DNA from: a virus
Length of the DNA: 64,000 bases
Virus record (IMG/VR): IMGVR_UViG_3300045125_000034
Location: 81,205-145,204 of that record
Strand: one strand, 5' to 3'
Made by a program: the position numbers and the translations under genes. The notes beneath the pieces were generated by a model that did no database searches, was not told where the DNA came from, and saw only the letters and a list, made by a program, of their open reading frames with translations. Of this stretch, positions 30,184-44,940 are shown in pieces. Each line of letters opens with the position of its first letter. Position 1 is the first letter of the stretch.

Positions 30184-33100
30184 GTTGCAATAACCTTCAT
30201 TGACTTGATGATTGGTGTTGGGTGGTTTGAAACATCGTTTGTGCCGTGAAGCACTACCTTTACTGAGAAGGTGGAGAATCTTTGGTCATCGGTCAAAGCC
30301 AAGGTGTATCTGATGTCCTGATACTCACCTTCTGCCGTGTTTCGTTCTGTGCTTGCTGTCATCTTCGTGTAGCCACGGTTTTGGAAGAAGGTGTTCGAAT
30401 CGGTCTCGTCAGGTAGAGTTCTAGCGAATACCTCAACTCCTGTATTCGGTGGGTTTGAAATCTTCAGATAGACATCCAACTGAGTAGCAGGATTCTCCAA
30501 ATTGATCTTCTTCGTGATGTACCTTGATGCCGAACGAACAGGGGTTGATACCCCTCTATTAGTTGGGCTTTCTTCTCCGTTGGTATTTGTTGTTCCTACC
30601 TTTGTTGTTGTTCATTTGACTTTCAACAAGAACTACGCAAGAGCGATCCAAGTCAACCATAGGCGAAACATAGTCATTGTTACTTACCAAGTTTACGCTT
30701 ATTGTTGTGAAGTCCGCTGACAAACCAACAGAGTCAGTCAAAGTTCTGTTGATATTTTTGCCCAACAAGATGTTTGTATCTGATGTTCCTAAAATTCGGG
30801 ACCATTTTCCTTCACGGTAATTGATGTCCCCGGAGGAACTATAGTTGGTATTTCAACTCGTACTATACTTGGGTTTTGCAAGATGTTCCATAGTAGTTTG
30901 TAGGAACATTCTTGGTTTGGATTACTGATGCTGTGCTTCTATCAAACTTGCAGAAGTTTACAACAAACTTCAAATCCTCCCTAACTTCTTTCAGCAGGGT
31001 GTTTGGGGGTTTGAGCAGTAAACAGAGACCTGACATAAGGCTGTTTTGTTACTGTCAAAGATGGGTCTGAATCGTTTGCCTTATATTGAGTTTGGTTTAG
31101 TATAGCGGTATGCAAAGAGAACTTATCGCTTGTTGTTCTCAGACTAAAGCAGTATTCCGCCCCCGGTGACAGGTATATTGGTGAGTTGAAATTAAACCTT
31201 GTAGATGAAGTAGCGTCTTCTGAAACTGTTATATTGTTTGGAGAATACAGTAGATACGCCCGTGGGTAGAGTCTTTGAGGGTGTGGATACCCACTTATCA
31301 ATGTCTTCAGTTCAAGAATTACGGGTACACCAACAGATGATGTGTCTTTAGTCTTAAACCACAAATCGACACTACTGACAAACACACCATATGGATATAT
31401 GATGGGGTCTACAAAGAATGATTGTGATAGTGGTTCTACTATACCTCTTGATGTTGCTGTACTACTTGTTTCTTTGCCAAGATGTTGTTCACAACCGTTG
31501 ACGAACTTGGTGATGCTCTCTTGATTAAGTGGCTTTCTTGTACTCAAAACATCCGTTTCTCTTGTACCATATCCACCCTCAATATAGAAGAGTTTTTCGG
31601 CAACTGTTGTTGTTGTGGTTATATCGTTTGTGCTGCTATCTGTAAACCTAATCAGTCTTGGTCCTGTCTTTACATTTCCCGTTTGGTTTATGCGAATCGT
31701 GTATCCTAAAGATCCTGCTGTTAGACCACCAAACGATCCCTACTATCTGTTGTTAGGTAACTCACGGTGGAGAATCCTGATACTCCTGTTGCTCCCTGTA
31801 CAGTTACCGTGATATTAGAAGAGAGTTATAGCATCGTCTATAAATGCGTACATCTTGGTGTTTGGCTTTAGCCCATCTCCACGAACCATGACCTCTATGT
31901 TTCTGGCATAGAATTCAATATCGTTGTTGGTCTTCTCAGATACCTTGTTTAGAACTATTGATTACGGAGATGCATTACGATCAATTAGACCAGAGAATTG
32001 CGAATTGATATTCGCTGATACCGACATATCATCGCTTGTCTTATTGAATAGGTTATTGGTAGTCTCATCGAAATTGCTCTTACCAAACCACATAGTTTCC
32101 CAATCGTTCCATTGAGTTCCAAATCCTGTACCCTCGCCTGCGCCCGCGCCCCTTCCGCACCCGCGCTCCCGCGCTGAGAATGCCCAATTATCTCTTTCCC
32201 CTCTTGGGTTTTACTTTTACTGATGGACGAGCGGTATCTGCAAACCAAAAATCAGAATCGGGATTTGTAAACAGAGTTCCCGTATAGTTGATTACACCAA
32301 ACGGATTCAACTGACGCGAGGATGATGCTTGCGGTTGAATGATGCTTGGGTGTTCCTGTGTATCCTATAGTGAACAGCCGATTTCCTGTTATGGATAGAG
32401 GAATTTCACTTGGACTATAGTTATACAGGGATGGAGTTGCGGAAGAGTCTAACGATAAGCGATAAATCTTGGTCTCAAACGCTTGGACGAAGAGATGATG
32501 TTTCGGGATCTATTGCCGCGTTATACATCAAATCTTTCACATCTCCTATGTTGTGACCACGGAAGGTATCTACCAAGATTCCTTCTTAGGTACTTCTACT
32601 CCTTGAGAATCAACAATAGCAAGTATTCTTTGCTTCCTGTTCCAAAAGACTCATGGTCGTATAGTATTCAACAGAGTCAATTCTTCTTTCTAAGTTACCT
32701 ATATCCTGCATGGTGTAACGCTTGTTCTTTACTGCACGAAGAGAAACATCATCCCTACTATAGGTGTATGGAGGTAGGGTTAGTGTATACAGGGTCATAC
32801 TGTTTGGATCGTCAGGCGGGACTGCTGCTTCGGCAGAAGGCAACCCAGAAATTATCTTGAAAGAACGGTTCTTTGATAGAACCAATTTATCTGTTCTTGG
32901 AAGATACTTTTTCTACAGTAATCAATCCCGTAGAAGTCGATACTGGATAGCAGAAAGGACTAAATGTGTTGTCGGGTAATCTGTGCTGGTCTAAAATCTA
33001 TCATGTCGGATAGATAGTGAGTTTTGCCTGTATCGGGACTTGTATAGACGGGGATATCACTAAAATCAACAGTAGAGTAAGAATCTACTGTGAATGGTCC

Positions 33101-35278
33101 TCCTGCTTCAGTTATTCCCGTTCTAGCAAACCTTCTCAATGTAACATTCAATGGTCCTGTTAGTCCTGCTGTGTATCCCGATGTAAATCCGGGAGCAAAA
33201 GCAAGTCTTGACCAATCGTAGTAGTTGTCTCTATTTCCTGTGTCTAGAACAAAATATTGAGATAAATCTTGCCCGCTTGGTCCTGTTACAGAACTAACTT
33301 CAAAAACATCAACTTTTCTGTTGATATAGAAGAACTCGAACCATTTGCAGCACCCGTTGCACCAACATCTCTCTGTATTGGTCCTGTAACAGATATGGTT
33401 TCTTGAGTTACCGTTTTTCCTCTTCGGACATATGTTGCTGAGTTGTAGTTCAAACGAACTTCACCAATTACTGTCCCTGTTGCTCCGATTGGACCGTTGG
33501 TGATGATAATTTCATTCGCTGCTGTTCCTGTCACAGCAGATGCAGATACGGAATCTCCGCTCTCATCAATAACTATTAGAGTATTTGCGGGAGCGTTGAC
33601 TCCTGAGCCGTAATCAAATTTAGTAACGCTTGGTTTTGTTCCTAATCCTAAAATCATTTGTTGTTAATGTGGCTGCACCTGTTGCAGAAAATGCTATCTT
33701 ATTGGCGAATCGTACCTTGTAGTCGAGTTCATTTATTGCCCGAATCTCCACTCGGCAGATGTTGGGAATAGCAGGGTGTTGGTGAAATCTATCAATTCTG
33801 TGCCGCAGCAGGACTATAAAAATCTACTAGTTGTTGCCCTGCCTGCTGTTCTACCCCGGAACAAAAAGACTCTTAACTGTCGAGAATTCTGTCCCCGAAC
33901 TCAAAGAGATATCAAATAAATCTACTCTCCAATTCTTGTCTCCGTTGCCTCCCTGATACTGTAGACCCTCTAAGTTTTGCAGTACCAACTTGGGCGAATG
34001 CGGATGCTCCCGACCCCACTACCTGATGACAGAAGTACTGTAGGCATATTTTGCATGGTTACTGTGGTTAGACCATTGGACGGGAAGTTGTTGCCCGTAT
34101 TACTTCCCAACACATAGGACCGACAACTGATTGGATGTTGGCATCTTCTACAGTTGTTGTTGTCCTAGCCTTTGGTAAATCTAGTCTAGTATTTCCTATA
34201 GTTTCAAACTCATATCCAAACACATATGCTTTTCGGGGCTTACGACAACAGAGAAAGTTAATCCTGTTGCTCCGTATGGTTCATCAGTAATAGAAACTTG
34301 GAAAAGGCTCTACTGTATAATTGCCCGATTCATCAAATGTTCTTCTTGCATAGGGTATCTCCCAAAACAGAATAGTCGGGATACTGTTCCCTCTTGATGA
34401 CATTACCATTTACGACACGAACAAATTCAATGAAGTTTTCTCTTGAGAAATTGTCGGTTGCTGCTGTACTTACATCGGTAACTTCGGAATATCCATATTG
34501 AGTCAGAGGCAAATCAATCTTGAATCTAGTCAGCACCGAGGCGCAGCGTAGTTATAGAAACCATATGATGGATCTCTTAGAGTTGTATCGTCTGCTATCG
34601 GTTACAATTTGTTTATTGACCAAGAATCCGACTCTTGTAGTAGGAGACTCAAACAAACGAATACGAGAACCAGTCACACCAGTCAATGATGCTGCGGCTA
34701 TGGTTTGCTTATCGTTGCTTACAAAGAACCCGTTTATGAAGCGAATACCTGGGCAACGGATACCAACAAACAATTGCCCATAGACTGACCCGTAAGAGAT
34801 CCTGCGGTTATACCACCTATTGTAAAAGCAAAGGGTGATGAATTCGACGCAGTTCCCCCAATAGTGTCTCCTGCGGTAAATCCTGTTCCGCCTGAAGTGT
34901 ATTCGAAGAAAACTACAGGTCTTGTATCGGAGGAACTTCCTGTTAATGCCGTTTCGGCGTGAACTATCTTTCCACTAACATTTGCATTAGATATTTCGCC
35001 ACCGATTAGGTCGGTTATAACTTGTGTGCGGTAAGACTAGAAACGCGAGCAAACTTTACTCTGTTCTCAACAACCTCGCCACCGTATACCAAAGACCCTT
35101 CATTGAAAATGTTCTTGCCAAATCTCTCTATTTGATTCTGAAGTATAGTCTGTAGTTGTGTCAGTTCTCGGGCTTGAACAGCATACCCGGGGCGGAAGAG
35201 CATACGCAAAAACTTCTTGTCTTCGCTGCAATCATCATAATACGGGTCTACATTGAAGAGTAATGGGTCGTAGGACAT
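30180..35278 (-). CDS. Large virion structural protein (DUF4815 family), frameshifted
   Basis: FNVDPYYDD..KKFLRMLFRPGYAVQARELTQLQTILQNQIERFG; KRYTMQDIGNLERRIDSVEYYT; PLSQSFFVD..GVFVSSVDLWF; C-terminal FSTFSVKVVL..IKSMKVIAT. Confidence 0.85.
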
Positions 35279-35287
35279 TCTTTTACC

Positions 35288-37833
35288 TCAGAATTGGAAG
35301 AGTACTTCGATTTCTTCCTTTTGCTCAAGATTTCTTGTTATGGGTTGCGTATTCTGTATGTAGGTCAACTCTCCTGTCCTGTATTTCAGGTCTTCCTTGT
35401 GTGTTGTACTTACAACTCCACATTGAGAATCGTCGCCTTTATTGTCTACAAACGACAGTACTCCGGAAGGACTAAATTCTCCCTGAACACCACACATTCT
35501 CAAAACCCTCCAGCTTGACCCATCTGTTGCAATCCATTCTAAAACAGTACCCGACCCCTCTGCGGTCAACCCTAAGTAAGACTTGACCAAGGAATCCTGA
35601 GCAAAAGAGTTGATACCAAACGGATTTGAGATACTTGCTCGTAAAGTTACTGTTGTTGTTTGATCGTATAGTGTGGGGAGTCTTTGGATATCTCTCCGAT
35701 TTCGACTACGGTTGCTGTTCCCGTATTGTGTGTGGGTCTTCCTGCTACAGGTCCGGTAGATCCCAAACTTGCTGGCCTACTTGCTCTTAGGTAATAGTCC
35801 ACCTCTACCAACTTTTCAAACCTCGCAGGAAGACCTGAAGGTTCCTCCACATACAAAGTGGCAGAAGTATTTGTTCCTACTGTAGGTTCCCAACGGAAGA
35901 TAGAACCCGTAAATCTTGTATTGTGGACGCTGCTTTCTATGTTGCCAATGCTTGCAACAAACATTCCCGGATGAAAATCTTCCCCACCTGCGGAAAATAC
36001 TCCGAAGTACCACCCAATGCTGGCTCATATACCGTTGTGGGTATAACCTTTAGCCTTAAAAGTTCTCTCCCTCAGTACCCGCAACGATTCTCTGAGACAC
36101 ATCTACAACATCAAAGTAACCACTTGCATGCCCCAACAGAGGACGAAAATACTCTTCCTGTTGAAGCAAAATCCCCACCAGTAACATCAGAAACTATCAA
36201 TTCGGATAGACCATACTTGTCTGTACCCGAAAGACCTATTCCTGTTGGTCCTGATCTCCAATAAACAATTTTGCCTGTTGCCTGCGGGTAGGTAACTCCA
36301 GCTAGACCCCCGTTGTTCCTTGAGTCAAAGATCCTCCAAGTAGGAATGATCCAGTTAGTCCGTTTTGAGCCAAACGAAGTCTTACTTGTTTGTTTCTCAA
36401 TTGAGGGTTCTTTATGATCCCAAACTGTCTGTAGTCATTAGCAACAGATAGTTGATTCTTTTCGGATTGACTAAACTCAACGACTATCATTATTGCCGCA
36501 GAACCCAGTTCTCTAACAGCATTAGAGCCATGACCCCCGTGAGGAGAAAACACTATTTCTGCGGTATCATTCAATGAACCAATTCCCGTTAGCCCCGAAG
36601 TAAAAGTCAAACCCTTTATTACCTTAAACTCTGCTCGGGTATAATCTCTTCCCCCATCTATAACTTCATACGAGTCAACATATGCTTGGTTGAAGATGTT
36701 TGTGGTATCGCATCCTGTGGAACCCGAATTTAGAGATGGACCGAATTTTAGACCAATATCCGCTTCTCTAAAAAGTTCAAAGTACTATCTAGAGGATATC
36801 CATCCCCCTCTATTTGTACATTAGGAACTATGGAAAATTTACTGTCGTTTGATGAAAGCCCAACAGACAATGGATGATCCAAAGTTACTGTGCCGTAGTT
36901 GCCAACGGAAGAGTAGGAATAGGAATTGATTACTCTTCTTTGCCCTTCTCCCAGACCATCGTCAATAGAAAGAATTAGATCATCATAGAAACCATTGACT
37001 CCAATCAAATACGGACTGTATATTCGTATAGAACCCGTATGTCCTGCCGTATACCCTTGTTGGATTATGTTTTGGTTGTCAGGGCGTAGACAATTGATTA
37101 TGGTGAGATAGGGCTTGTATTGTTCTTTGATGCCAACGAAAGAAATCTGACCATTTATAGCACTCTGCTGAACATTCCATTGAAGAACTCTATCGTCTTC
37201 ACTCAATCTCAAGTACTGAACATAGGATACAGGCATGTAGCCCTGAATTATAACTCTTCGATATGGACCACTTCCTGAGATGTTTCATCATATATTGTTT
37301 TGGTTAGGAACTTTCTATTTTCCTCGGGTATCATATACATAAACTTCCAACGATACCCATCTGATAGTTTTCTGATCTCGGGATCAGTATGTGTTGGTGC
37401 TAGCGGTAGACTTAGAACCGTAGTTGTTGTCTATACACTTGTAGACTCTTGTTTCATCAACCAAGACATAAAATTGGGCGGGATAGTCGGCATCAAAAAG
37501 ATTGGAATAGTCTCTGTATGGTTCATACACCCCACCCAATTTCCAATCAAAACGAGGAACTACAAGAGAAATGTTGTCTTTAGAAATTCGTTTGGCTGCT
37601 ACAACGCTTTGCCAAAATTCTGTCTCTACTCTATCGCTATCCTGTGGTACTGGAACAGGACGGGCGTAGTTAGTCCCTGATAGCCCCGTATCTCTTGTTT
37701 CTGTAGGCCAAGGTGTTATTTTACCTATAGTTAAGAAATAGTTATCGGGAGACATCAGTTCGATGTCCGCTAACATCTTTTCAGCAAGATGTCTTCTATA
37801 GTTGTGGCGAATTGGTGAGCAAGATGATCCCAT
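35288..37833 (-). CDS. gp8: Baseplate wedge subunit gp8, enlarged
   Basis: AAKRISKDNISLVVPRFDW, FYVLVDETRVYKCIDNN, DGYRWKFMY, PHGGHGSNAVRELG, NDYRQFGIIKNP and GELTYIQN..ITRNLEQKEEI. Confidence 0.88.
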
Positions 37834-37852: not shown

Positions 37853-40800
37853 TTATGATGTCCTGATGTAGTTGAAATTCATTATCTTGGTGCATTCTGG
37901 CACAATAGCATTTGCGGAGTTTCTGAACAGAAGTTTCAGCCTCATAAAGTGCCTATCTTTAGGTATATCTCTTCCCCTGAACCTAAATGTGGTTGAGTCA
38001 GAAACGAAGTAACTTGCTGACACCATTTCGTTTGTGGTGTTTCTGTTTTCTTGATTGGGGAAGGGTTTGTTTATTGATATTAGGTTGCTTGTTGGGGAGA
38101 ACGGTCCTGCATTTGCTAGCAAGTATTCCCTCTCGGGGGTGCGCCCGTCCGGCGCTGCGGGAGACACAATGTACAGTTCCGCCCATAGTGTTCTTTATGC
38201 CATAGTAGTTGAGATAAACTAAAGTAGAAACCCCCTCTGTTGGGGTTCCCGTTATGCCCCTAACCGCTTCCAAGTTGACTATGAGATTGGACCCACCTCC
38301 AACAAGGTTTTGTGGTTCTCTGTGGTCAAAATTGGTGTTCAATGGACCAGTTGAACCGTTGATGCTTTGAGCATACACCTGTGGGAATGGGGGAGGAGTA
38401 ACTTGATCTGTGGTGCAGTTGAATTCTTCTGCCCACGGGCATTTCAAAGAAAGCCCTAGCAGTTATCTTGCGGAAGTCCGAATAGGCTATGTTGTAACCA
38501 ATCGGATCTCCTTGAGGTATACTTTCTCCTGTAAGAGCAATAGTTTGAATACCTATATCGTCCCAAGAAGCAGTATAACCATATCCACTACCACTTAGTC
38601 CTTCATATAGTTCTAATAAGCCTTGGCTGACCCCCCATGTTAAGAGCATCATTGCCCAATCTGCCATATCTATTGTTCCGCTGTTATCAAAATCAGCAAG
38701 AACCGCAGAAGTTGATTCTGGTCTTTCCCCCGTTACACCAGCATTAGCGAACGCAACAGAACCATACTCTTGCGTAGAACATGTATCGTCATCGCAATAA
38801 GAAAGTACCCAAAAGTCCATTAAAGGTGGAGTATAAAGGATAGATTAGGTTTGAGACTATATCGACAGCAGTTTGTCTAAGAGTTGGGTTACTCGTAGTA
38901 GTAGGCAAACGATCTATTATAGTACTCCCAAATGGAAACCAATAAGTGGGCGAACCTGATGTTGGACCTGTTATTGAGTATGCCGAATTGGAGTATTCTT
39001 GCCCACTATTTCCGGTCAAAGAATTAGCCCAATGATAAAAGAACCCAAAGATTTTCTATACAAGATTTTGTATGAGTCTTGATTATCTTCTCTGCCGCTT
39101 GCAAAAATATTTGGAACTCGGTTGTGTTCTTTGAAAGGTGCTGACGCTTCCGAAGCACCCAACAAACAGTCATAAATGAATTCTGGATTGTAGTCATTGT
39201 AAAAGCCATCGACTGTTTTCTTATAGTTATACTGTGTTCCTAAAATCTGTCGGAACAAAAATTCTAAAAGATTCCTTGTTTATGACTGTGTATTCGGGAA
39301 TATAGGTTCTCATGTTGGAATCTGAGGATATGAAGAAACTTGGTGTATCTTTATCGTTTGTCGTATAAAGACGACTTGTACATAAAAACACCCTCTTTCT
39401 CTTCTTCCCCATAGAAACATAGTATTCGTTTAGTTTATCTACACCGTATAGAACAGAATCTACCATAGTCTTTACTTTGTTAGTAGATGGGCTGTGTAGG
39501 TGTGCGTCAACATATATCACATCTTGCTCTTGTACAAGACTAGATACCACATTTGCTGCACTTGCTCCGTAACTTCTGCGGTGTACTTCAGGATAGTTCT
39601 CAAATGACCTATAGAGATTTTCCCCGTCTAAAACAGAAATGAACTTGGGAACCCTCGGATAATTGTAGTAACCAAATCTACAGTTAGGATAGACCTCTTT
39701 GATTCTTCTTAGAACAAAAATCATGTCCCCTATTATTTCAGCAACACGATCTATATCCTCACTATTGGTGTATTCTACTTTGTACTTTGGGTATATCAAC
39801 TCTCTGTTGAATGTTTCATCTAAACATATCATCACATATTCTTTGGAGTCTCTGTTCAATCCAGAATCAGATAACCAAGAATTCATGGCATCTACTATGT
39901 CCGTAAGTAAGAGTGGAGATGCCCCTGTGTTCTTACTTTTCAGATCCGCTTCTGTGAACTTGTATAATCTCTTGCCGCCAAATATACTCGGTCCCGGAGA
40001 CGAGGATTCTTTAGACCAGAATAGTCTTGAACAAAGGTTTCTCCCAGGCACAGAGAATAAAAATCGGTCATAGAGAAATGTTGGGTTTGCTGCATCTGTC
40101 AAAGAGGGTATTCTGTAAGCAGTAAGACCTTCTACAGTTTGTAATGCTTCTTCTTCTTGCTCTGTGTAAAAGGGTACGAGCGGATTATAAGAAAGCATCA
40201 CATATCGTTCGCCTGAAGTGAATCCTGTTGCCCAAGCCTCTCGGTTTGCGGTTACAGATTCGGTCCATTCTTTCCAATATCCTGTTGTTCCGTTTGATCC
40301 TGTTGGAGTCGGTATACCAAAGACAGAAGCCGCCCCGTGATTACTCAAGAACTCTTTCTTTAGGTCATGCGGAATTCTTGCGACCACTCGGATCGGTCAT
40401 TTTCCTGTTGGGGTGCTGATAGATGATCCAAAACGGATCGGCGTTTTGGAATCCCTCTTGTTTTAGAGGAGTTTGAGTCTCGTTATACTCTACGCCCGAA
40501 GTAAAAGGATTACCTATGACCTTGAAGAAATCTTCATATGATGGTGGGGGAAACCTCTATCCATTACGGAATCTTTGTAGTGGTAGTAGTCAAGAATATC
40601 AACAACACCATCGGGACCACCTACAGGCAATCCTGCTATATCCAGCCCCGCCATATCATATCTAATTTTGTATTCGTGTTCTTGTCTGTTGTATCCTGCT
40701 ATAGAGACTTCTGTTTCTCCGTTTACCACCTGTGCTGTCGTAAACCATTTACTCAAGTCATTGTTGGTTAGGAATGTATATGGAAGATAGTTTCCAATTA

Positions 40801-41987
40801 TTGGAACATCATATTCGATCAACGATGTTTTTTGGTTGATGTCTGCGTATGAACATTTCTTTATCAACACTTTGCCATAAAAAGCCATACCCGCAGGATT
40901 CAAAAGTCTCTTTATGACATCCCTATACCTGTCTACGGTAATCTCAGTAAGCAAAACATAAGAGAAGTTTTGGTAATACTTGTTGTCTTGCATTACCTTG
41001 TTACTGCTCAATCTTCCATCGTTGTTTGCATAATACCCAGAGTATTCTGCTTGACCTTTTACAGTTATAGATCCCGAAAATCCTGTTCCTATTTCTGAAC
41101 TAATGCTTATTGTTGGTGGCGTTTTGTAGTTTACACCATAGTTGTCTATAACTATCTTCTTTACTTTACCTGTAGAATCTACTTCTGATACTCTACCTGA
41201 TCCTTTTATGCCAGGTGTCTCCTGCTGAAGGAGTGATTACAAGTTGATCTCCAACTCTGTAATTCTGCCCGCCGTTGTTTATTTGTGTGTCACCGAGAAC
41301 AGAAAAAACTCTGTTCTCTCTACGCAAGTTTCCGTCTTTGTCTTCAAATTCTACCCCCGCGTAGCCCGAAGAAAACTCTCCGTTTATGCCTCCCAAAGAT
41401 AGTTCGGCAACATCGTAAATCCCAATTCTGTAAGTTGAAACATCAAGTACTCTACCGCTTGCAACAATATCGCTGTTGGCGTTTCTTTGTATCAACCGCT
41501 GACCTACGGAATCGTATATCTGTCTACCCAAAACATTAGAGATCTTTACTGTTTTCCGAAGAACCCATTTGCCGTCTGATAGTTTTAGAATATCTTTCTT
41601 TGGGTAGTAGAATTCTACAGCCGTGTCGTAAAGAATTCTGAACAGGAAGTCATATGTCTTCTCGGTTCCCTTTGCCTTGTAGAAACTACGGATGTTCTTT
41701 ACCAACTTTGCCTTGTCAACGATTGTCTTTTTGTCAGTTATAGCCAAAGTCTCGGGGAAGTCAAACAAGAACTCGTTTTTGAACGAGTCTATAAACTCAT
41801 CCATAGTTCTATCAATATCGATCTACATCCTTTAGTTTCTTTGGTGACCGAAGATATTCGTTATCCTTATCCAACCACTCATAGTATGCAGTCAAGAATG
41901 ATATCATGGTAGGATGGTCAACCCGAACAAACTCGGGCAACTGACCTGCTATGATTGGGAAATAGGTTTTTCGTTCGGAGGGTTCAT
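37853..41987 (-). CDS. gp7: Baseplate wedge initiator gp7 with a long C-terminal extension (GH56-like barrel and dockerin-like motifs)
   Basis: QLPEFVRVDHPTMISFLTAYYEWL, LVKNIRSFYKAKGTEKTYDFLFRILY, YPKKDILKLSDGKW, MQDNKYYQNFSYVL..VIKRLLNPAGM; about 950 aa follow. Confidence 0.82.
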
Positions 41988-41990
41988 CTA

Positions 41991-43913
41991 TCAGTATGGG
42001 AATGGTGTTGCTGTTCTAGTGTCCTGACGGAATGTTGACTCTGGTTCCTACCCCAATTGTGCTTCTTGTCGTAGTCGATCAGGATGATCTGATTTCTTCT
42101 TGCTGCAATATCTTGAACCGCAGGAACCACCGTGATCTTGATTTCTGAGTCTGTGGCAGGCTTTATGTATTCAACCTTGAAGTTGTTGAGGACTATCTTT
42201 CCTGTATCATAGTTGACTTTTCCTGCCTTGCTGCTGATATAGACCTTTTCTGTGCCTACAACCTTGTAGATTCTCATGTTTCCTCTACCATCGTCATCCA
42301 AGTAGCAATCTACTGTGGGCTTGACTATGGAACTGCTTGTCGAATCTTTGTACCCAAACACCGAAGAGGATACAACAGGCTGATACCCGTCTATTGGGTG
42401 TAATAGTGGGTTGTCGAAAGATATTGTGTATGGTGCAGAATACGAGAGCAGGGGTTCGATTCTCTTGTTCAGACGAAGCGTGACTCTAGACCCTGTTATT
42501 GCTTGATTTGTATTGTCAATCGCGTTTAGGAATTTGGACATCTTGAAGTTCTTGTTGAACTTGGAAAGATTGTCATTTTCAAAGGCTTGTGTTGTGTTTC
42601 GGATGAACGAAATCAAACCATCGGGACTGAGATTTGTTCTATCCAAGTTGTAGGATGATACTGAATTGAATTCCAAGAAGAGGAAGTCGGGGTCCACTAT
42701 CTCGGGGGTGATACCAACCAAGTTCCTCTTACTCAATACAGACTTCTCTAGAGCCAACTTCTCAAGTGTACTGATACGCTTTCCGTTCTTTGGCTTGATT
42801 GAGATGAAGACTTTACCATATGACGGTGGGTCGTTCTGCTCGCCCCCCAAACCAAGAATGAATCAATACCGTCAGAGAACTCTCTGACAAGTATGGTCTT
42901 GTAGTCTTCTTCGGTTACTGCTCTCTCTTGTGCCTGATAGTTTCTTGGTGCGTAGTACTTGATGGAGTCTATACTTTCGGGAGTTGTTCCGCCGTAAGAA
43001 ACTCCTTGCTTGTTGTAGTCATTTAGAACGGGAGTGATGCTTGCAACATTACCCATGAGCAACGCATTTCCGCTTGAAGATCCGGCAAAGGTAAAGTTGG
43101 TGCAGCCGTTTGCCTCTTCTCCGTTAGTCTGAACATATTGAACTGATATGAGGTTTCCGTTTCTTGGACGCTTGCCCAAGATTCCGTCGCCAAAGTAGAT
43201 TTCAAATCTTCCGTCTTCAGTTTCTTGTAGGAAGTAGGCTAGGGATTCGCCGTTTAGCCCGTTGATGTCTGTAGCCTTGAACCACACATTAACAAGTCCT
43301 GTGGTGTTTGTGGTTGACTCTTGAACTCTTACCTGTAGGGTGTCAACATCAATCTTGTTGCTCGGTAGAATGAACTTCTGCGTTGGGTCAAAACTGTTGA
43401 CAACAAAGGTGTAACTTTTTAGTGTTCCTTCGTATAGTTTGATTCCCTTGACTACGGGGGTGTTATTCACAACCTGAACCTTATACGAGTCCAAAGAAAC
43501 AAAGTTGTAGGTGTTCTTGCCCAATCTTCCTGTAAAGACATCTCCGCGATTTATGAATGCCGATCCGTTTATGGTAGAAGACAAAACACTACTGTTACTG
43601 TTGAAGGTTATGTCCATCTCTATCTTGGAAGATTTTACTGACCTCGGAGTATAACCCAAGTGCTTTGCTATTGATACCGCACTCTGACGCAGAACAGCCG
43701 AATCCAAGAACGCTTCGTTTGCTACCATGTTTGCGTAGAAAGCTCTGATAGTGGGTGTTGTAAGCAAGAACATCCAAGAGGACATTCATGCCTGCTCCTT
43801 CGAAGTCGTAATCCTTGAACTGTTCTTGTGTTCTCAGGTAATCTTTGAGGTTTGTCTTGATGGCATCGAAGTCCAAACCATCTATGCGGAGATTTGCGTT
43901 ATTGGATAGCCAT
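41991..43913 (-). CDS. gp6: Baseplate wedge subunit gp6
   Basis: LDFDAIKTNLKDYLR..FKDYDFEGAGMNVLLDVLAYNTHY, NEAFLDSA, ESIDSIKYYAPRNYQAQERAVTEEDY and GGEQNDPPSYGKVFISIKP. Confidence 0.93.
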
Positions 43914-44302
43914 CTAGTCCTCTCCAAGAAAATGTTGGTCTCAAATATCTCTTGTTTGTTGATGATGGTGAACAGGATACTTATAGTTATGCTGTTTTCG
44001 TCGGGGCTTGGATTGAATGTAACCTCCAAGTTTTCGACTCTTGGTTCGTATCTTCTGATGATATCCGTGATATGACTTTGCATGACTGCGTAAGTGACGG
44101 GGTTGTAATTCTCAAACAGAAGATCCTGAATACCCGAAGATATCTCGGGGTGGAAAGGCTTCTCGTACCTCTTCAAAAGTATCAGGTTACGGATAGCCCT
44201 CTTGACTGCCTCTGCGTCTTCCTTCACAGCAACATCCTTGGTTACAGGATTAGCCTGAAAGTTTAGGTCCAAGTCGCGGAAATAGTTCTTGCTTGATGCC
44301 AT
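43914..44302 (-). CDS. gp25: Baseplate wedge subunit gp25
   Basis: YFRDLDLNF..AVKRAIRNLIL..EKPFHPEI..LLFE..YEPRV..FLERTR. Confidence 0.93.
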
Positions 44303-44940
44303 CAGTATTGCCTTATGATCTCAAGTTCTATGAACGAACGATATCTCTCCATCAAACGCATGGTGTCATCGGTATCGCTTGGCACATTGTTCTTGTCATT
44401 CCACTCAACCCGCACAAAGCCAACATACAACTCCTGCTTGCGTAGGGGCAGTATAATGAATGCATCTATGTTCTTGGACTCGTTATAGACCCGCAGAGAT
44501 GACTCCTCGGTTAGTGTTTTTGTCAAACGAATCTTTGAATCGTCTTCCTTGACCATCTCAATCATGTCCCAAAAGATCGTGGTCAGAACATTCTGAAGGT
44601 AGGGGTATTCCATAGACACACCCGGACTGCACGATTCGTGAGACACACTAAATCTCTTCATGGGCGAACCCTCTAGGAACCGCCCTCCATTATGGAACTG
44701 ACCTATCTGAACTCGGTCGGCATCCATGTTGATACGGAGTGATGTCAGCATTTCGTGAATGTGACTGTGCTTAAGGTCGGGCTTTGCCGATATGCACAAC
44801 TCCTTGGGGTCTTCCTTCTTCTGCATCATCTCCCGTACTTACGCTTGAGGTAGCCGAAGGTAACCATGATGCCGCCAAAAACACCCGCTATCGCCACTCC
44901 CATGTTTGTCCAAAACTCAATGCTGCTTGTGCTGAACATA
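44302..44940 (-). CDS. Membrane protein: N-terminal TM helix plus GAF-like domain (T4 holin T-like architecture)
   Basis: MGVAIAGVFGGIMVTFGYL TM helix joined by a frameshift to ..LRINMDADRVQIGQFHNGG..AFIILPL..YVGFVRVEW. Confidence 0.5.

Follow-up and report, generated by a model that had tools for sequence, protein, structure and literature searches.

Does the baseplate of a phage carry a docking system of the cellulosome kind? This question is raised by a locus at positions 37853 to 41987 (− strand) of a 64,000-nucleotide stretch of viral DNA from IMG/VR record IMGVR_UViG_3300045125_000034. The window, by which we mean this whole stretch, is the final 64 kb of a linear virus record that measures 145,204 bp and whose completeness is estimated at 67%. 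The original prediction, made from the sequence alone, had placed here a gp7 gene with two dockerin/EF-hand-like motifs flanking a GH56-like glycosidase domain, and had read the three together as a cellulosome-style docking baseplate. Both motifs are present on the − strand, motif 1 exactly where it had been put (38632–38700) and motif 2 at 40586–40642 (about 40585–40643 as predicted), and they do lie on either side of the glycosidase-like block (39230–40171). What they belong to is a baseplate wedge protein with a rare lineage-specific decoration. Motif 1 came with this decoration, an insert of about 550 residues, and motif 2 belongs to the backbone of the wedge protein, so that the two differ in origin.

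The wedge gene and its insert

As written, the single gp7 frame of the prediction is not there. The elements in question fall into three stop-free stretches (40517–41236, 39230–40396 and 38329–38844), and along the − strand the reading frame changes near 41958, 41823, 41213, 40545, 40390, 39250, 39045, 38820, 38445 and 38192. An intact wedge orthologue of 1313 residues (P0005), which comes from metagenomic contigs of 99–110 kb, aligns collinearly with 41958..37859 of the window across every frame change. The window pieces can therefore be assigned to one original wedge gene, and to this extent the prediction of a single gene stands. The gene (37853..41987, − strand) has about 1377 codons, its ATG at 41987 and its stop codon at 37853–37855 being read directly. 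PF23786 (Baseplate_wedge) matches at 41196–41822 with 31.9 bits (cut-off 27), and phrog_17744 (baseplate wedge subunit) matches pieces of the backbone at E 8e-25 and 5e-18. A profile score above the cut-off is thus found together with a place between a gp6-like and a gp8-like gene, and we read the region as one baseplate wedge gene, in the gp7 position, of an uncultured T4-like myophage.

Distant T4-like wedge subunits (PF23786, phrog_17744; among them Caulobacter phage Cr30 gp248 and virion structural proteins of cyanophages) match the window gene in its N-terminal and central blocks, occupy the same position between gp6 and gp8 and belong to a family that accepts very large insertions. Unlike them, the window gene has a C-terminal extension which is otherwise found in only about 20 metagenomic proteins, and the insert of about 550 residues, which is otherwise found in only two protein clusters.

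The insert (38491..40153, − strand, about 554 codons) lies between the conserved backbone strands YNPLVP and IAYSDFRK. P0004, a homologue of 645 residues from contig L001, has the same backbone with only 14 residues between YNPLVP and IAYSEFRK; in P0005 the same two strands are 512 residues apart. An alignment of the site was built from P0004, 20 other full-length homologues and the window piece (22 rows). With the flanking motifs counted, the site measures 9 residues in distant members, 28–32 in closer ones and 526 in P0005 only. In the AlphaFold2 (AF2) model of P0004, calculated from 22 rows, the insertion site is a strand-turn-strand (predicted local distance difference test score, pLDDT, 55, most of the region concerned scoring under 50). 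When 1.84 billion representative proteins were searched exhaustively with HMMER, the insert turned up in this record, in P0005 and in P0006, a wedge protein encoded at L005:3001–9993, and nowhere else. The insert of the window is 34–40% identical overall to that of P0005. No match to the insert or to the piece with motif 1 was obtained by tblastn in the phage collection, and IMG/VR scans with the two pieces returned no relatives. Pieces of the insert have no match in Pfam or NCBIfam at E≤10 and none in PHROG at E≤0.01.

The P0006 protein has 2330 residues and is otherwise near-identical to P0005. Its additional length is a second insert of about 1000 residues, composed of an RCC1-type propeller and six TIG/IPT domains, which occupies a nearby loop, some 60 residues upstream of where the first insert enters. 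Whole-module swaps in the wedge protein thus distinguish closely related phages. Blocks of the same backbone, as defined by PHROG, are also present in virion proteins of 3000–6000 residues. Since both the second insert of P0006 and these very long proteins are found, the wedge scaffold can be said to tolerate large surface insertions. This shows how a peripheral wedge protein of distant T4-like phages diversifies, with accessory modules spliced into surface hairpins of a conserved scaffold.

The first part of the insert (39230..40153, − strand) is a domain of alternating strands and helices, 34–40% identical to residues 596–861 of P0005, and is the block that had been called GH56-like. At permissive thresholds it has no match in Pfam, NCBIfam or PHROG, and the GH56 hidden Markov model (HMM; PF01630) finds nothing at E≤10 in the peptides or in the whole genome. 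The lead arises from a language-model search in which the GH56 cluster came third at 0.86 with DUF4434 and GHL13 lower, values that are below the evidence level of the tool; all three neighbours are glycosidase-like barrels. A search of the ESM Atlas with the orthologous P0005 segment gave no usable match and did not reproduce the lead. The AF2 model of the P0005 insert, built from a 6-row alignment, has a mean pLDDT of 39, and only its residues 66–220, in which strand and helix alternate, are moderately confident. A wide fold search with this poor model stayed at noise level. The best score (Z 7.2) was a de novo helical protein, and the wasp hyaluronidase 2atm_A (GH56), with Z 4.7 and a root-mean-square deviation of 6.9 Å over 159 residues, lay within noise among unrelated folds. 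An SGNH esterase, suggested by fold matches of Z 4.5–5.3, was rejected, as the insert is without a GDS-type block and has D-x-H instead of D-x-x-H. With the TIM barrel of GH56 hyaluronidases the block shares an FGYYxYP-like strand motif and a strand/helix periodicity of about 45 residues. Unlike GH56, however, it has no HMM match and a fold match at noise, and the acidic residues of the putative catalytic strand differ between window (D-E) and P0005 (N-Q-E), where the alignment has a 25-residue indel. The predicted GH56-like domain found no HMM or fold support in these searches; we describe the block as a putative alpha/beta module without family assignment, with GH56 as a lead.

Two calcium-type loops of different origin

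Motif 1 (38632..38700, − strand; translation LADFDNSGTIDMADWAMMLLTWG) is a single EF-hand/dockerin-type (F-hand) loop followed by an exiting helix that ends in LLxxWG. The loop itself (38659–38694) has the 12 residues D-F-D-N-S-G-T-I-D-M-A-D, and the motif lies near the end of the insert, with about 47 codons left until the return to the backbone. Its counterparts are LGDLDGSGYVDTGDMALILLNWG in P0005 and LGDRDGSGIIDTGDTGLILLFWG in P0006. Positions 1, 3, 5, 6, 9 and 12 and the LLxWG helix end are identical in the three proteins and position 8 is Ile or Val, which gives the common pattern D-x-D-x-S-G-x-I/V-D-x-x-D. The original prediction had staked itself on conserved Asp positions in gp7 homologues, and in P0005 and P0006 those of motif 1 are indeed kept. 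The 145-kb genome, read in all six frames, contains no other EF-type loop. Each codon shuffle is expected to give about 0.03 such loops, and the combined loop and helix signature appeared in 0 of 60 shuffles. Because the motif is unique in the genome, lies beyond chance expectation and keeps its ligands within an insert of such low identity, we take it to be real and under selection.

Which known loop it resembles most is a matter of degree. The EF-hand models PF00036, PF13405 and PF13202 score window motif 1 at 12–14 bits (cut-offs 25–26; E 0.04–0.2) and do not match the motif peptides of P0005 or P0004. Used as a single query against the PDB, window motif 1 finds centrin at E 0.019, and the P0005 motif finds a four-repeat dockerin-like chain and calmodulins at E 7e-5 to 5e-4, values that were helped because these targets carry repeats. 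With EF-hand and DxDxDG loops (calmodulin, centrin, bacterial single-loop sites) motif 1 shares the canonical loop consensus and an exiting helix ending in Gly, and a short entering helix is possible. Unlike an EF-hand, it is unpaired, has Asp and not Glu at position 12, and reaches 14 bits where Pfam asks for 25. The Asp at this position leans toward the dockerin or bacterial loop style.

The comparison with dockerins bears directly on the docking proposal, under which motif 1, alone or as a split dockerin with motif 2, would bind a cohesin-like protein of the host or the virion in a Ca2+-dependent manner. With the type I dockerin repeat (PF00404) motif 1 shares the 12-residue loop, D/N/S ligands at 1, 3, 5, 9 and 12, the Asp at position 12 and an amphipathic helix after the loop; Asp instead of Glu and the LLxxWG-type helix are dockerin-like features. 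When a profile of the insert was compared with 177,635 PDB sequences, three matches only were returned, all of them dockerins aligned on motif 1, which speaks for docking as far as non-significant values (E 0.5–2.3) can. Against it, Dockerin_1 (PF00404, gathering threshold 22.9 bits) matches none of the motif peptides (window, P0005, P0004) at E≤10 and finds nothing in a six-frame search of the whole 145-kb record, and neither motif region, in the window or in orthologues, matches a relevant NCBIfam (release 20) model at E≤10. Unlike a dockerin, motif 1 consists of one repeat and lies within a virion protein, where the type I dockerin is a terminal module. A tandem pair of loop and helix was not found, six-frame searches of the genome and of the orthologous loci having shown one such loop, and paired helix-loop-helix units are likewise absent from the insert, which has a single unit. 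A hidden second repeat was considered on account of a faint LLxxWP-like stretch 13 residues before the P0005 loop; the stretch is not conserved in the window and the candidate was dropped. The search for further dockerin or cohesin-like proteins that had been suggested for the rest of the genome gave none: like Dockerin_1, Cohesin (PF00963) matches nothing at E≤10 in the phage record, estimated to be 67% complete; the host was not searched. Altogether, the likeness of motif 1 to calmodulin-type EF-hands is about equal to its likeness to dockerins. Of the predicted dockerin/EF-hand reading, the conserved, canonical Ca2+-type loop stands and membership in either family does not, and a fair description would be one EF-hand/dockerin-type loop-helix.

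Motif 2 (40586..40642, − strand; translation DIAGLPVGGPDGVVDILDY) is an EF-type loop in degenerate form; it belongs to the conserved backbone and precedes the insertion point by about 140 codons. Motif 1 lies some 630 codons away, in another structural unit. The loop of motif 2 retains the Asp residues of positions 5, 9 and 12 and the Gly of position 6. The Asp of position 1 is parted from the D-G-V-V-D-I-L-D run by an expansion of about 6–7 residues, and the ligand of position 3 is lost; no better reading was found in other frames. The dockerin ligand pattern (positions 1, 3, 5, 9 and 12, Gly at 6, a hydrophobic residue at 8), which is complete in motif 1, is therefore broken in window motif 2. 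It had been likened to a GC-type dockerin variant, a comparison we abandon, as the loop is degenerate, no dockerin-type helix follows it and neither Pfam nor NCBIfam has a matching family at E≤10. It may be noted that our literature search turned up neither a paper on dockerins in phage baseplates nor any use of the term 'GC-type dockerin'.

By itself, window motif 2 would not stand out from chance, and its meaning comes from the canonical loops of homologues. At the same site P0004 and P0007–P0012 (seven homologues) have the canonical D-x-N-x-D-G-x-[IFL]-x-x-x-D followed by [IMV]-P, P0013, P0014, P0005 and P0006 have variant loops, and in P0015–P0025 (eleven more distant homologues) the whole segment of about 30 residues is absent. 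We read motif 2 as an older, dispensable EF-type loop of this wedge subfamily which has decayed in the present phage. In the AF2 model of P0004 the backbone loop and its helix have pLDDT 66–72, above their surroundings (model mean 55). As a separate observation, the loop at L001:1026–1061 and those of P0007–P0012, all in a subclade of metagenomic wedge proteins without the big insert, form an unannotated candidate Ca2+ site of the wedge family.

A probable structural calcium site and its alternatives

We consider it somewhat probable (about 0.6) that motif 1 is a structural Ca2+ site, stabilizing an accessory insert that is exposed on the surface of a wedge scaffold tolerant of insertions. In a small lineage, the hairpin between two backbone strands would have been replaced by the module of about 550 residues, made of the alpha/beta domain, a mostly helical stretch and one loop-helix placed just before the return to the backbone. 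Motif 1 would bind one Ca2+ through Asp1, Asp3, Ser5, the carbonyl of position 7, Asp9 and Asp12, and the bound ion would stiffen the junction by which the accessory module is attached to the wedge. In other words, the terminal Ca2+-loop element of the module may serve as a structural clasp. Motif 2 would be a second, more ancient site of this type, now decayed in the present phage. As for the module, it is probably a decoration that faces outward and acts in host-surface binding or glycan processing. If the loop binds Ca2+, then sensitivity to ethylenediaminetetraacetic acid (EDTA) and mutants of the Asp residues would offer a simple handle on the role of such decorations in adsorption.

Several points weigh against this structural role. 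The conservation of motif 1 comes from two independent lineages only, P0005 and P0006 being 93% identical to each other, and all family matches of the motifs lie below curated thresholds. As a rule EF-hands and dockerin repeats function pairwise, which makes a solitary unit unusual. Both AF2 models (pLDDT 39 and 55) are too poor to tell how the loop packs, and the window sequence is laden with errors.

EF-type loops placed where domains of a peripheral baseplate protein meet would also suit a Ca2+ switch, in which Ca2+ sensed by the loops would make the peripheral baseplate change its conformation. The baseplate of lactococcal phage p2 is reportedly Ca2+-activated. Nothing in our data separates such a switch from a static structural site, but many homologues can dispense with the backbone loop and in this phage it has decayed, and we regard a switch as unlikely.

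Slightly more doubtful is that the motifs have no function, being a relic of the protein that donated the insert or in part a product of assembly errors. In the wedge gene, frame errors come at about one per 400–500 bases, and motif 2 is degenerate, as this explanation would have it; motif 1, however, is intact, and its ligands are kept in error-free orthologous contigs from independent samples.

In a further reading, the lone repeat at the end of the insert would pair in space with the backbone loop or with its own counterpart in a neighbouring wedge, the split Ca2+-dependent pair then either latching the module onto the baseplate or plugging into a cohesin-like protein of the host surface. 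We hold this to be improbable; if true, the split pair would be a modular plug-and-socket way to build or target a phage baseplate. Least probable of all is a true docking module as set out above, since its three PDB dockerin matches and its dockerin-like helix and Asp stand against the lack of any Dockerin_1 match, one repeat with no second within 630 codons, a degenerate motif 2 and a phage record in which no cohesin turned up, and the cellulosome-style docking baseplate is left unsupported.

Neighbouring genes and frame breaks in the record

In the whole 145-kb record, stop-free stretches of at least 300 codons number 6 only, and so few are impossible for a healthy T4-like genome. Reassignment of a stop codon as the cause of the short open reading frames was ruled out. 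Because all three stop codons are used in the record and homology hops from frame to frame, the breaks are better explained by indel errors than by a recoded genome. The frame changes adjoin short A, T or C homopolymers, and we read them as indel errors of assembly. By gene, the breaks amount to about 10 in the wedge gene, 4 in the gp8-like gene and at least 7 in the DUF4815-like gene, mostly beside short homopolymers. Protein-level claims on such a frame-broken record call for an intact relative, such as those on contigs L003 and L004. No tRNA genes were found in the window.

The order gp25, gp6, wedge, gp8 is common to Cr30 and to contigs L001, L003 and L005, and around P0005 it extends to gp53, gp5, PAAR, gp25, gp6, wedge, gp8-like and DUF4815. 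Downstream of the wedge gene lies a gp8-like wedge gene (35291..37833, − strand) in five frame pieces, recognized by tblastn of the gp8-like protein of L001, with PF09215 found on the neighbours in L003 and L001. It is followed, as in L001, L003 and L005, by a DUF4815-type giant virion protein (31824–35278, − strand) in at least eight frame pieces. Upstream are the gp25-like and gp6-like wedge genes (41984..44320, − strand; PF04965, PF21379, PF21387 and PF21871), in the same order as in L003 and with gp6 in three frames. By Pfam, gp25 and the first gp6 domain are at 43598–44320 and the C-terminal gp6 domains at 41987–42862. The ATG of the wedge gene overlaps the stop codon of gp6 as ATGA (41984–41987, − strand), which suggests translational coupling of the two genes.

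Two minor observations concern the junctions of these upstream genes. In relatives, the gp6 and wedge genes are 6 nt apart or overlap. At 43598–44320 (− strand) the gp25 domain and the first gp6 domain share one stop-free frame, whereas in L003 they are separate genes with a 4-nt overlap; the joined frame is probably another junction indel and not a real fusion.

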